Source: Octopus vulgaris
Lineage: Eukaryota
Length of the DNA stretch: 64,000 nt
Direction: 5' to 3'
Assembly (NCBI GenBank): GCA_951406725.2
Contig: OX597831.1
Span: 15,314,001 to 15,378,000 of the forward strand
The translations under genes were made by a program, and so were the position numbers. Of the stretch, positions 20,723-49,799 are shown in pieces. A model generated the notes under the pieces. The model made no database searches, was not told the origin of the DNA, and saw nothing but the letters and a program-made list of their open reading frames with translations. Positions within the stretch are counted from its first letter, which is position 1, and the number at the start of each line of letters is the position of its first letter.

Positions 20723-21263
20723 TTATTAGCTGAAGTGGTGTTATGGTGGTAGCAATCGTAGTTGCACTACTAATAGGAAACCTATTTTTATGTCGTACAC
20801 TAAACGCGTTATAGACTGCAACTCTGTGTCTTTTGGGTTTTTACAAGACTCATTTTACTTCTGTTCTTTCTTGTGCATTGCTCTGTGTGTGCACCCCCAC
20901 CCCGCATATATATATGTGTGTGTGTGTAGGGGGTGTATGTGTGTGTGTGTGTGTGTGTGTGTGGCTGTGTATGTGTGTGTCTGTGTAAAGTAACAGTTTA
21001 GAAAAAAAAGCATTGGTTTCATATCTAGCGCGAACCAGATATATCTTCAGTTCATCTAAACGATAAATGTTTTCTGCAAAGAAAGTTTTTTGTAAAACCC
21101 AAGATCACCGGTGATAGTTCAAGAAATATTCCTCTTAAAAACATATTTTTATTTATTAATTTAATTAAATAGTACCTTATTTACTGTGGTTAACCCCGAC
21201 TCAAGCCGGAACCTACACATATATATATATATATATATATATATTTATTTATTTTATAGAAGG

Positions 21264-21314
21264 AGCTTCTACAGGACTAGAACTGTTTCATTCAAAAGAA
21301 ATCATCAGGAAGCT
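21264..21314 (-). ncRNA. Type I hammerhead ribozyme, family H1 copy 1
   Basis: Minus strand agcttc-CTGATGA-tttc-tttt-gaat-GAAA-cag-ttctagtc-ctg-TA-gaagct. Stem I is 6 bp, stem III closes a GUA cleavage triplet. Confidence 0.75.
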
Positions 21315-24300
21315 AGGTGACAAGAATAGTTTTGGCATTTATATATTTAGGCAGGTTTAAAGGGGTGGTGGTGGGGGACTTTTTGGGGTAGGCATGGCGC
21401 AAACTATCATTCTTAGGGGAGTAGTCAAAGGAATCAGTGATAAAGTAGATAAAAGAATAAATAGAATAATAGAGTTTTAGGTAAAAGGGCAATAAATGGT
21501 TTCTTTAGGCCAGCTAGGCTAGCTCCCTCGGGAGGACCTTACTTCAGTGCCGGCCTGGTTGGTCGAGGTCAAAATAAAAATAAAAATAAAAATAAAAATA
21601 AAATTAAAATAAGGGAAGAAATGTGTGTGTATGTGTGTGCATGTATATGCATATGTGTGTGTATGTATATATGTATGTATATATATATATATATAAGTGT
21701 GTGTATGTATGTGTGTATATATATATATTTATATATATAGATATGTGAGCGTGTGTGTATGGGGGTGTATATCCTCTTTTATATTTATTTTTATATATAT
21801 GTGTGTAGATATATGTGTGTATGTATGAGTATGGGTATGGGTGTGTACGTAGATGTATGTAAATGGGTGCATATGTACATGTGTATATGGATGTATGTGT
21901 GTATGTGTATGTATATATGTATATGTATATATATATATATATATATATATATATATATATATATATATATATATATATATATGTGTGTATATATATATAT
22001 ATATATATATATATATATAAGTGTATAAGAGTCTCCTTATTTACCTAAAACTCTATTATTCTATTTATTCTTTTATCGACTCAACCCGGGAACTACATAT
22101 ATATATATATATATATATATATATATATATATATATATATATATACACGACACTCAGTAGTGTTATAGTAAGCATGTTGCGCCCCTTTGCGAATCCTTTC
22201 GCGTTCGTTATGCGTGTGTTGGCATGTTTTGTACTTTTACTAAAGCACTTTTAGATATAACGATTGTTTCCGATTTCAATTCAGTTCTTACAGACAAATT
22301 AGTATTATTAGGGCAGTGGTTTAGCAGTAAATTTAGCTGTGTTGATACATTTCTTTCGGTCATTTCCGATGAGTTGAAATTCATGATAAAATAAGTAGCA
22401 GCCATTACGCAATGACATGGGCCATATAGTAGGCTAAACACTTCGGATGAAATTGTGTCTATATCAATGCTCTAAACTTAAATTCACCTCCTACACAATC
22501 ACCTCTATGCTAAACCACTTCATGTGAAAAGCATTGTTTCGTTGTAATAATTATTAACTCTTTTACATTGTTACTTAAACGTTCATCCCTGTGATAACTT
22601 AATGGAACGATGTTACCTTTAGCTCCTTTTGTAATGTGGCTTCAGCAGCAAAATACTTTTTCGTAGGTTGACGTTTTCCAAAAACGTTGTGTTCCTGGTG
22701 GCAATTTCCTACAAACTATGTGAGTAGATAAATAGTAATTTTATGACAATGTTTCGTCTTCCATATTCAGTAACGAGGAGAAATTGCTACAAAATATGTT
22801 ACTTCTTCATGTTATGAACATGATCATCTTACTTATGGTTAGGAGGCTTCATGTGTTTTGAAATTTCCTGAGACACGTAGCTATGACAAAATTATTTATT
22901 CTCCCACAGATACTCCCAGTGGCGTCAGTTTAGAATACGAGGAGCGAATATTCAGTTAGTCAGGCTTTTAACTGACGGTTTCGGACTCGTTCGAAATAAC
23001 ATCACTAGACTTGTCTATTATAGGCACAAGGTCTGCAACTTGGGGGAAGGGGATAATCGGTTACCCTGCCCTTACTTAACTAGTACTTAATATATCGACC
23101 CCGAATGGATGAAAACCAAAGTCGACCTGGGAGGAATTTGAATTCAGAATGCAGTAAACCATCATTTTATCGGGCTGCTACTGTATAACTCTCAATGAGA
23201 GATTTAGAAATGCAATATTTCTAATTTCATATATATATATATATATATATATATATATATATATATATATATATATATGTGTGTATGTGTTTATGTATAT
23301 GTATATATGTATATATATGTATATGCATATATATATATATATATGTATATATATATATGTATGTATATATGTATATATGTATATATATATATGTATTTAT
23401 ATATGTATATATGTGTATATATATATATATATATATATATATTATATATGTATACACTCGCACACATATCTGTATGCTTACGGGCATATTTATTTGTGTT
23501 TAAGCGAAACGTACAAACAATCGGTGCATTCAATAACATATAATTATCTATATGCCTGTATATAGAGAGCGGTGAAGGTAAGAGGAAGGCTGCAATACAA
23601 ATAGGTACGCACCTGTCACAGTGGGTATTTACTATGAATACGAATTATACGAAAGGCGATCTTTTTATGATACCTGAAGAAAAAGACAAACAAACATTCA
23701 CAGCCGCTTTGAAAAATTGGCAGACTTTTAGAGCCTAGCACAACAAAAGGCTATAGAGTGTCACGTTCAATAGTTATTGAAACAGCAGGGAAAGGAGAAA
23801 GAATGCGATAAAAAGAAATATTCAAGTTCTGAGATTAAGCATATGCTACAAGTGTTTTGTTACAACCACATATTAAATGGTTGTTTGTTTGTTTGTTTAC
23901 TTTGGTGTTAGAAAGATATCTGCAACGTATTAAAATCCAAACAGTTCGTTAGATGAAGAGAACTGTTGAAATATTAGCGAGACACACGAGGAAGGGAAAG
24001 CATATTGCGAAACTAGTACAACAAATGCTTCCATCGCTTCTGTTTTTTTTGGGTTTTTTTTTTCAGTTTCTGGACTTCCGCCATGCTGCGGCACAGCAAT
24101 GAAGATCTCTTTTTCTTTTCTGCTTTGCCTTTTTTGTTTTGGTTATGTTTCGAACAAGTCAGTGCTAATGTTACTTTTAAAAAACTTCTGGTACATGTTC
24201 GTTCATTCTCTTTGAGCCGGCCGCTATATTAAGGGATCATAAACAAACCAAGGCTGGTTGGTTGTAAAGAAATGGGGAGTGTCAAACACAAAATGACACT

Positions 24301-24379
24301 CACAAGTACATACATATACGTACAGATTGTGTTGTGTGTTTGTGTGTGAGTGTGTGTGTGTGTGAACGCGTGTGGCTAG

Positions 24380-24895
24380 TAGTTAGTGTATTTTCCTCTT
24401 CTTTCAATCAAGACCTCAAAATTCCCTTTTGCTGCTGCTGCTGAAGTTGTTTCAATTCTTCCGTGTTCAATGCTGTGGTCGGTTAGTAACGTTTTCACGC
24501 CTTCATTGCCTAAAGTCAGAATATCCTCCACAACAACAAAATCTTCAGTTTCAAAGTGCTTGAAGACTCTGCCGCCAACAAAATCTGGACGCAGTTTCGG
24601 CCATCCAAACTCATGGCCCCCTAACTCTCCAATGATCTTAATCAATGAGAAGAAATCAATAGTTTATATTCAACTCAGGATTCCAGGCGTCTCCGATTTG
24701 TTCTTTATTTCTATGTCAGAGTTTGTTTCAAAATACATTTGAATCAGTGCTTTGTTGTAGAGATTATTACAGGTTGAAACCACGTTCTGATCCATGGGCT
24801 GGATTAGAGGATTAATCTTAAGTGCAGGAACGGCTCTGCAAACAAATCTGACACTTCCGCGTAATTGTCTGCAAAGCCTGGAGGGTGAGCAGACG
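24380..24895 (-). pseudogene. Tigger/pogo DDE transposase remnant
   Basis: Minus strand SAHPPGFAD.../NPLIQPMDQNVVSTCNNLYNKALIQMYFETNSD.../KLRPDFVGGRVFKHFETEDFVVVEDILTLG...VKTLLTDHS, matching the pogo AHP...LIQPMDQ.VI..FK region. Frameshifts, an internal stop and deletions. Confidence 0.85.
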
Positions 24896-47911: not shown

Positions 47912-47962
47912 AGCTTCTACAGGACTAGAACTGTTTCATTCAAATGAAATCATCAGGAAGCT
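47912..47962 (-). ncRNA. Type I hammerhead ribozyme, family H1 copy 3
   Basis: Reverse complement of copy 4 in the left arm of the palindrome. Confidence 0.75.
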
Positions 47963-47987
47963 TGCTGTCAGCAAGCTTCTGACAGCA

Positions 47988-48038
47988 AGCTTCCTGATGA
48001 TTTCATTTGAATGAAACAGTTCTAGTCCTGTAGAAGCT
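47988..48038 (+). ncRNA. Type I hammerhead ribozyme, family H1 copy 4
   Basis: agcttc-CTGATGA-tttc-attt-gaat-GAAA-cag-ttctagtc-ctg-TA-gaagct. Confidence 0.78.
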
Positions 48039-49799
48039 CCTTCTATAAAATAAATTAATTTATTCTGCTATGTATTGAGTACCTTATTTACTGTGGTTAA
48101 CCCCGACTCAACCCGGGACCTACATATATATATATATATATATATATATATATATATATGCACACATATATATGTATGTATTTATATATCCATATCCATA
48201 TATATGTATGTTAATATATGTGCGTATGTATGTGTGAGTATGTTTATCTACAGATGTATTATATTGAAAACAAGAATATTATTGATGGTGACTTCATCCA
48301 GTTAAGTCAACCCCGATGCATTCAGGTTAATCTTAGTTTTCTGCACTTGTTATTGAGTTTAAATATCACTTGGTGTCTTGGGTTTCAATTGAGTGGTAAT
48401 TTATTTTTAGTGAGAGTTGTTATGGAGAGCTGTTTTGGAGAAATATTTATTGATCATATTTGGTTTTTTGTTATTGCTTAGAATTGCACGAATAAATTCT
48501 ACACTATAACATAACCCCAAATTTGATCAATAATAATTTTCTTAAAACACGTCTCTATAGTAACACATCTTAAATTTAATTAATGAAAGCCACATACCCA
48601 TCGAAGGTTTTTATTCATCGGATACAATATAATGCCTAGATTGACTCGTCAAAACTCGTCAAAACCTCTTCGTCACTGTCAATAAATATTCCTGTATGAT
48701 ATATATATATATATATATATATATATATATATATATATATACAATGAGAGAGAGAGATACGCATGCACACAAGATATATTTATAAATACAACGAGAGAGG
48801 GAGGGGAGGGGAAGGGAGAGAGATTATGGGAAATCTCGGAGCAGAGAATGGCAATGAAGGAGATACTTTTTCATTTAGTATTATTATTCCGCAGCAATAA
48901 AAAGTCTTCTAATTTAAACATTGTACAATTTTCAGCGCAATAAAAATTTTCTCGGTAATTTCAGTATTCATTGTTACGCATGAAGACACACACACACACA
49001 GGCACACACACACTCCTACACATACACACACTCATATGCATATGTTTATGCATCCATGTACGTATGACAGTATATATCCTTTCATAAAAATATAATCTTA
49101 GTAAAAACAATAAAATAATTTGATTATCAAAACTAAGATATCATCCTCGACATATCACAGTTGAAACAGCAATGAAAATTATAATCAACTACATATGTCA
49201 ATGAGAGTAGTAATAATAATTATAATAGCAACAGGAACAACAACATTAATAACATTTTCTCCTATGACTTAATGAAATGTTGAGAAACGGGGTACATCGA
49301 CCCAGTACCCCACTGGTACTTATTTTCTCAATTAGAAGAGGTTGATATGGCGAAGTTAACCGCAGCGGAATTTAAGCACAGAACGTGCTAACAATTCCGT
49401 AGTCTGACTCAGAGAATTAGGATACAATCGCTCATGCAAGTATGTAGGAATGGACGAAATATCCGAAATGCAACACAGGGGAAAAAATGAGAAATTTGGA
49501 GAGAATATTGCAGGAGATTTAGAGTTCTATGAAGAAAATCTGAAATTATTATTAATAACATGATATCGATAAAGACGCTAATTATAAATTACAGTTTCAA
49601 CATATTAAACCGCACGATTTGTGATTTGATAACCTTAACTAGAAAAAGCAGGAAAGTATTAACAGCATACGAAGTCACAGTGCGAAAGCAGACACAAGCA
49701 GAATATATACCAAGCAGAAACAAACTCTACTGAAACACTGATTACACAGCAGAAATTGTGAAAGAGAGAGAGAAGAAAAACTCTTCGTGCATGCGTACA

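Follow-up and report, generated by a model that had tools for sequence, protein, structure and literature searches.

The 64,000-nucleotide stretch of Octopus vulgaris DNA analysed here (contig OX597831.1, positions 15,314,001 to 15,378,000; hereafter the window, numbered from its first letter) contains four copies of a type I hammerhead ribozyme. They represent a new and abundant family of a described kind. With a probability of about 0.5, it is a non-autonomous element that descends from the Hydra clade of Penelope-like elements, spans about 330 bases without coding capacity and is copied in trans by a Hydra protein. That the family is a Hydra-type element in one form or the other, autonomous or non-autonomous, is a claim we make with good confidence. 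The likeness is judged from the 3′ end and not from an open reading frame (ORF), and the element appears to work like a Hydra-type 3′ end. Since the ribozyme and its context fit a described clade, no new kind of system is proposed. A first-pass annotation of this DNA had taken the copies for termini of a Penelope-like element targeting (TA)n, which our analysis supports and narrows to the Hydra type through the hammerhead features and the (TA)n preference.

The hammerhead copies are as follows.

Positions 21264 to 21314, minus strand: copy 1, type I, loop II UUUU.
Positions 38600 to 38652, plus strand: copy 2, type I, loop II UCUU; starts at stem I, with a short end running into (TA)n.
Positions 47895 to 47962, minus strand: copy 3 (hammerhead at 47912 to 47962, loop II AUUU) and its short end, running into a short TA run; an inverted arm.
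Positions 47988 to 48038, plus strand: copy 4, type I; cut predicted after 48032, following GUA.

All four lie exactly where they had first been placed and align without gaps. Each reads AGCUUC, CUGAUGA, U-UUC-NNUU-GAA-U, GAAA, CAG-UUCUAGUC-CUG-UA and GAAGCU, which is the architecture of a type I hammerhead. Stem I (AGCUUC/GAAGCU) has 6 base pairs (bp) in copies 1, 3 and 4 and 7 bp in copy 2, stem II has 3 bp above a U-U pair, and stem III has 4 bp and an 8-nucleotide (nt) loop with CUAG at its centre. In the customary hammerhead numbering, the core C3-U4-G5-A6-N7-G8-A9, G12-A13-A14, A15.1-U16.1 and H17 is present, as are the three stems with stem I open, whereas the 10.1-11.1 pair, usually G-C, is U-U in every window copy. 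A hammerhead descriptor, a check that the first-pass annotation had proposed, matched the window four times, at these copies, and matched none of 100 block-wise dinucleotide shuffles. The proposed covariance-model search gave nothing: Rfam had no match to the window at the gathering score and, around copies 1 and 2 at E≤10, no hammerhead but only microsatellite-driven chance matches. Copies 3 and 4 form one inverted event, so three copies are independent, as had been counted before, and the window copies vary only in loop II. At 47537-47556 on the minus strand, an 18/20 match to the first half of the hammerhead core adjoins a long TA run (E 0.03-0.05) and is a decayed copy or a chance match.

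We examined the family more widely by aligning contigs from four public runs to positions 21150-21580; 4140, 1039, 144 and 19 contigs fitted. Part of this stretch is contained in 20 of the 24 listed public runs (7 coded organism labels, 12 studies). None of the listed runs is on record as RNA, and taking X10 and X15 for RNA would be a guess only. The alignment omitted 21150-21261, where zero depth over the tail stretch carries no meaning, and contig depth is not a copy number. Four copies per 64 kilobases (kb) together with thousands of contigs indicate that the family is very abundant; exact-pattern scans found it in none of the metagenome contigs and none of the viral contigs. The earlier description of the element as young fits the single copies but not the family, which has several sub-lineages and is present in runs under the 7 organism labels.

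Taking 5% or more of depth as the threshold for a variable position, we found that 3 of the 51 ribozyme sites vary among the variants listed for the four runs, namely 21296 and 21297 in loop II and 21304 at N7, where U to A accounts for 43%, 44%, 70% and 14% of depth. Among the same listed variants, U10.1, U11.1, the stems and loop III were invariant. By contrast, the 20 bases immediately upstream of the ribozyme contained 6 variable positions in run X1 (Fisher P=0.011) and 8 in X5 (P=0.0035, computed with 7 such sites, so conservative); both tests took 52 ribozyme sites for the 51-site motif. The chance that all three variable sites fall on free positions is P=0.0005 with 5 free positions, or 0.016 with 14, when loop III and N17 are added. 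The claim that variation is confined to loop II therefore stands for the window copies but not family-wide, where N7 is also U or A. An even spread of substitutions over core and stems, which the first-pass annotation had named as evidence against its reading, was not seen in the four runs, variation being restricted to N7 and the two loop II bases. No compensatory changes were seen among the contig variants, hence there is no covariation proof. Judged from sequence, this is the pattern that selection on the fold among master copies would give.

One possible explanation is that the motif has been retained to serve a retroelement protein as a signal for binding or folding, with little or no cleavage in vivo; this reading, which is compatible with the others, seems to us rather unlikely. 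For the minimal ribozyme alone, the predicted pairing was 0.98 for stem I, 0.35-0.52 for stem III and, in the catalytic register, a weak 0.02-0.17 for stem II. With 9 further 3′ bases, the predicted fold was dominated by a hairpin, and stem I dropped to 0.18-0.25.

Positions 48029 to 48047, plus strand: predicted 8-bp hairpin UGUAGAAG-CUC-CUUCUAUA over the cut site and the 3′ strand of stem I, in all four copies; pair probability 0.74-0.81.

The weak predicted stem II and the competing hairpin are what a signal might look like, and a Penelope-like element of the anole provides a precedent, since cleavage is dispensable for its insertion and no RNA ends are found at its cut site (PMC11167929). 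However, variation falls exactly at N7 and loop II, the positions that are free in a catalytic hammerhead, and U-U variants are reported to cleave (Perreault 2011; PMC7229834). Our best guess from these models is that the ribozyme would be competent but weak, with cleavage being conditional. It had also been suggested that the CTAG palindrome allows dimeric cleavage. CUAG does lie at the centre of loop III, a loop with no listed variant, and a dimer with an extended helix III through CUAG was predicted at -23.4 kcal/mol, versus -13.4 for two monomers; dimeric cleavage may occur without being required. The 4-bp helix III can close in the monomer.

The remainder of the element was delimited from the contigs and from other pieces in the window.

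Positions 21315 to 21485, minus strand: element body upstream of the hammerhead, 171 nt, in contigs of all four runs; has a C-rich block that is conserved and, at 21343-21337, the TATA-like sequence TATAAAT.
Positions 22019 to 22077, plus strand: family 5′ boundary (tail-like 23 nt), from loose ends of four runs, and 38 nt identical to the body start (38/38); right arm of the copy-1 locus.
Positions 22077 to 22097, plus strand: final 21 nt of the tail, continuous with the 5′ boundary piece and followed by (TA)n.
Positions 48039 to 48125, plus strand: full 3′ extension, with spacer and tail to the long end; predicted stem-loop with an A/C-rich loop (ACUCAACC), then (TA)n.
Positions 38543 to 38597, minus strand: tail, 55 nt, inverted 5′-to-5′ relative to copy 2, with (TA)n outside; 54/55 identical to the copy-4 tail.
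Positions 21171 to 21217, plus strand: tail (3′ extension), 5′-truncated to 47 nt, then (TA)13; 44/47 identical to the copy-4 tail.
Positions 21245 to 21263, minus strand: 3′ flank of copy 1, with the hairpin arm and the short end running into (TA)n.

Several contigs bridge the body and the hammerhead, and the TATA-like sequence of copy 1 lies 29 nt before stem I. Past 21485, loose contig ends in all four runs (at least 7, 3, 5 and 2) carry the same approximately 19 bases and then microsatellite. [quoted passage not shown] The same-sense joining of the boundary piece to the last 21 nt in 22019-22097, together with the copy-4 arrangement, identifies as the 3′ tail the terminal sequence with which each copy had been said to travel. 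That sequence is present at all three loci (3/47 and 1/55 mismatches relative to copy 4), with a fourth piece at 22077-22097, but in three different orientations: downstream in the same sense only at copy 4, inverted 5′-to-5′ at copy 2 and 3′-to-3′ across (TA)13 at copy 1. The tail was rejected as an ORF start, its open frame having no ATG and a stop lying upstream. The unit thus amounts to about 25+171+51+87 = 334 bases, with about 195 bases upstream of a hammerhead that sits 87 bases from the 3′ end, a degenerate terminal repeat and no ORF, and we infer that the family is an ORF-deleted derivative. Next to the copy-1 body, a GC-rich low-copy repeat at 21487-21570 is covered by contigs of three runs and folds no better than shuffles.

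Alternatively, the pieces could be 5′-truncated 3′ ends of an autonomous Hydra-type element that carries the microsatellite within its 3′ untranslated region, inserted by the same mechanism. All window copies are short, contigs break at microsatellites and one X10 contig extends 221 nt beyond the boundary, and Penelope-like insertions are mostly 5′-truncated with inverted partners (PMC8557442). The boundary is, however, identical in four runs and resembles the tail, and no coding remnant was seen in the 195 nt upstream of the hammerhead, whereas in Hydra-1_Obim, judged by eye, about 125 nt separate the stop from the hammerhead that follows it. We consider an autonomous element possible but doubtful.

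The insertions have a characteristic anatomy. The elements have two alternative 3′ ends: copies 1, 2 and 3 stop about 15 nt past stem I (the short end), and the four tail ends extend 87 nt past it (the long end). Each of these 7 ends in the window adjoins a TA run, as the first-pass annotation had observed of the copies, whereas sequence no more than 5 nt away from (TA)6+ makes up 5.4% of the window. Loci 38543-38665 and 47895-48125 each pair a 5′-truncated copy with an inverted partner, one arm having the short end and the other the tail, and the two meeting 5′-to-5′; the copy-1 arm and the 22019-22097 arm stand in the same relation with about 530 other bases between them.

Positions 47963 to 47987, unstranded: 5′-to-5′ junction of copies 3 and 4, with 8 nt of upstream sequence per arm and 9 nt between the arms, including a duplicated AAGCTT palindrome.

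Where the tail meets copy 2, at 38598-38602, the sequence TATTGAG repeats the beginning of the tail in fold-back form and then passes via AG into stem I, indicating a templated junction. A fold-back exactly at the AGCT that opens stem I occurs in at least 24 contigs of X1 and at least 1 of X10. Every window copy spans the predicted cut site and none starts or stops there; because all copies span it, the inserted RNA was uncut.

This anatomy is shared with described elements. Penelope-like insertions are mostly 5′-truncated, with an inverted partner and an optional tail at one end (PMC8557442). In the Poseidon element PAc of the green anole (Frangieh et al. 2024, PMC11167929), the tail is set by two internal starts of the reverse transcriptase (RT), which works on uncut RNA; extension takes place on both DNA strands, and the ribozyme depends on protein. 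Similar to the octopus family, PAc has two alternative 3′ ends past the hammerhead, an AT-rich target, insertion of uncut RNA and a predicted A/C-rich stem-loop near its end. By contrast, PAc is autonomous, belongs to another clade and has a 30-40 bp tail (PMC11167929).

On the reading as a non-coding Hydra-derived unit, a Hydra RT-GIY-YIG protein would copy the element in trans. This partner would cut (TA)n on both strands, and each free DNA end would prime complementary DNA (cDNA) on uncut RNA, one cDNA starting about 15 nt after the ribozyme (the short end) and the other at the tail end (the long end). Both cDNAs would stop early and join 5′-to-5′, often at the AGCT palindrome that opens stem I; identical cDNAs could anneal directly only at palindromes such as AGCT. 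The hairpin above the cut site would keep the ribozyme mostly off in full-length RNA, and cleavage would need protein, a dimer or co-transcriptional folding. Junctions might also cluster at stem I if transcription began there under the TATA-like box, which lies 29 nt upstream; the Drosophila Penelope promoter is TATA-less.

A classic non-LTR retrozyme appears improbable; on this view, the ribozyme would cut tandem arrays of 330-nt units, yielding monomers and circles, and the window copies would be dispersed offspring. The family resembles animal non-LTR retrozymes, notably axolotl Rtz_353 / HHR_Amex2, in its non-coding unit of about 330 nt (retrozymes span 330-390 nt), type I hammerhead, U-U at stem II and very high copy number (PMC7229834; bioRxiv 2026.07.22.740005), and retrozymes, solo monomers included, have been proposed to be non-autonomous Penelope-like sequences (bioRxiv 2026.07.22.740005). 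Unlike them, the family shows no tandem arrays and no head-to-tail hammerhead pair in the 64 kb, no copy beginning or ending at the cut site, inverted pairs in (TA)n with two discrete 3′ ends, and a longer helix III. The retrozyme-like option of the first-pass annotation is thus half right: a non-autonomous element is likelier than autonomous termini, but the copies are dispersed and inverted.

Affinity to the Hydra clade rests on comparison with Penelope-9_HM, Hydra-1_aJap, Penelope-1_NV and Hydra-1_Obim (Craig et al. 2021, PMC8557442). Close to their 3′ ends, these elements likewise have a type I hammerhead in which stem III measures 4 bp and stem II, of 3-4 bp, rests on a U-U pair; (TA)n targets and inverted 5′-truncated partners are further points in common. 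The octopus family shows two traits expected of a Hydra element, insertion into (TA)n (7/7 3′ ends) and a canonical hammerhead, with a helix III of 4 bp, close to the 3′ end. By our own count in File S2 of PMC8557442, 14 of the 25 Hydra-clade hammerheads, two rows being identical, have U facing U as the lowest pair of stem II, and stem III acag/ctgt occurs in 4 of the 25 families; 26 of the 27 Hydra families listed there prefer (TA)n. U-U also occurs in Perreault 2011 and in axolotl HHR_Amex2, whose monomer cleaves 22% in an hour and whose dimer cleaves better (PMC7229834). The U-U pair noted in the first pass is therefore present in all copies but not unusual, and we rejected it as a novelty. 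What the family does not share with these Hydra elements is an 8-nt loop III with central CUAG, a tail of about 70 nt and the lack of a detected ORF (PMC8557442).

Dependence on another Penelope-like clade (Neptune, Nematis or Naiad), with a convergent or borrowed Hydra-like hammerhead, strikes us as very improbable. A microsatellite bias is reported for all three clades, octopus Naiads prefer (TA)n (PMC8557442), and the loop III and tail lengths depart from the Hydra rows. Naiads, however, have no canonical hammerheads (PMC8557442), and the hammerheads of other metazoan clades are minimal, G10.1-C11.1 being present and helix III small or absent (PMC4209133). The likening of the copies to minimal Penelope hammerheads accordingly failed on the 4-bp helix III. 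The minimal metazoan type (Cervera and De la Pena 2014, PMC4209133) does share terminal position, a palindromic loop III, widespread single copies and opposite-strand pairs with the family, but has a long helix II, G10.1-C11.1 and a helix III that is absent or 1-2 bp, versus the 3-bp helix II, U-U and 4-bp helix III seen here, and we rejected this identity. The window also has another hammerhead-like family, which is of the minimal type (GAAGAG...CTCGAAACG); it lies at 38764-38814 (plus), 55249-55299 (plus) and 42130-42160 (minus), two of its copies have altered cores, and its 38.7 kb copy directly follows copy 2.

We then considered a coding partner. No Hydra-type ORF (RT with C-terminal GIY-YIG, RWK, DKT and CxCX5C, no CCHH) is attached to the copies in the window, in agreement with the earlier statement that none carries an ORF. 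Among 82 frames near the loci, Pfam gave a single RT match, 3.6 kb from copy 3, with Tc1-like remnants and what we take to be short interspersed nuclear element (SINE) remnants between them. This decayed Penelope-like RT frame at 42900-44580 (plus strand) has many stops (RVT_1 E=1.3e-4) and motifs like those of the Hydra clade, with GLYRDDAL as in the Hydra-1_Obim protein; no endonuclease or hammerhead was found downstream of it, and an Atlas search with the fragment returned unnamed clusters and one weak RVT_1 lead (21% of members). We rejected it as part of the copies in view of the distance and the intervening remnants. At 20983-21143 on the minus strand, exact blocks of 29 and 20 nt are, by eye, common with the end of Hydra-1_Obim from Octopus bimaculoides. 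This Hydra-1_Obim-like 3′ end has its own hammerhead (core at 21050) and is joined 5′-to-5′ to the family tail at 21171; the arrangement could reflect a mixed insertion of both families, or else separate events within a single TA tract. Hydra elements thus occur in this genome, and the likeness to Hydra-1_Obim suggests that the host is an octopus. The O. vulgaris repeat library holds 190 Penelope-like consensus sequences, 6.83% of the genome (PMC13282606); a motif search of the accessible part of that paper's supplement, without the repeat library, gave 0 matches. A literature search found no paper on an abundant octopus hammerhead family, although Repbase, Dfam and the O. vulgaris library may already contain it.

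Several observations weigh against the reading as a non-coding Hydra-derived unit. Concerning the ribozyme, stem II is predicted to pair only weakly (0.02-0.27), neither the minimal ribozyme (z -0.6 to 0.1) nor any other of the modelled folds surpasses shuffled sequence, and the lowest predicted two-strand fold is non-catalytic (-28.4 kcal/mol). Because the alignment omitted 21150-21261, variants near 21264-21270 may be under-called, and conservation of the tail and hairpin lies outside the family-wide comparison. Concerning the unit, the orientation of the tail rests on one long-end copy, or two with the deleted 22019-22097 piece; the evidence for the 5′ boundary is 17 short contig ends among those listed, which could be an internal microsatellite where contigs break; and copy 1 itself runs on into another repeat at 21487-21570. 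Concerning Hydra affinity, loop III is 8 nt versus 1-3 nt in all 25 Hydra rows, none of which has both U-U and acag/ctgt, the tail of about 70 nt compares with a described 30-40 bp, and Neptune and Naiad elements also favour microsatellites (PMC8557442). No autonomous partner with the family's 3′ end was found in the window or in motif searches of supplements, those of the accessible part of the Craig et al. 2021 supplement (PMC8557442) giving 0, and the family 3′ end has no visible sequence match to Hydra-1_Obim.

Other repeats lie elsewhere in the window. Two related pieces of 320-345 nt adjoin (TAA)n at 9799-11446, where a frame at 10507-10866 (minus strand) has no Pfam match and, we presume, resembles the end of an R4/Dong-type long interspersed nuclear element (LINE). 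A 528-nt direct duplication (96%) spans 38968-40424, Tc1-like transposase remnants with DDE_3 and HTH matches lie at 45650-46370, and a weak DDE_1 match lies at 24673-24951. Self-inverted repeats of 130-200 nt, resembling miniature inverted-repeat transposable elements (MITEs), occur at 1337-1529, 15428-15556 and 48421-48559.

According to PMC8557442, it is unclear what hammerheads do in Penelope-like elements. Being short and abundant, with a conserved core, a competing hairpin and many junctions, the present unit makes this question, and the origin of inverted tailed insertions, testable. A bolder proposal, which we hold to be unlikely, is that an ORF-less retroelement of Hydra descent lies dispersed through octopus genomes in tens of thousands of copies or more. 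The hairpin over the cut site would switch its hammerhead off and so protect the RNA template, and its insertions would record twin priming from two fixed starts, joined at the ribozyme palindrome. If this were true, the family would offer a 330-base system for testing the function of Penelope-like hammerheads and the rise of inverted, one-tailed insertions.

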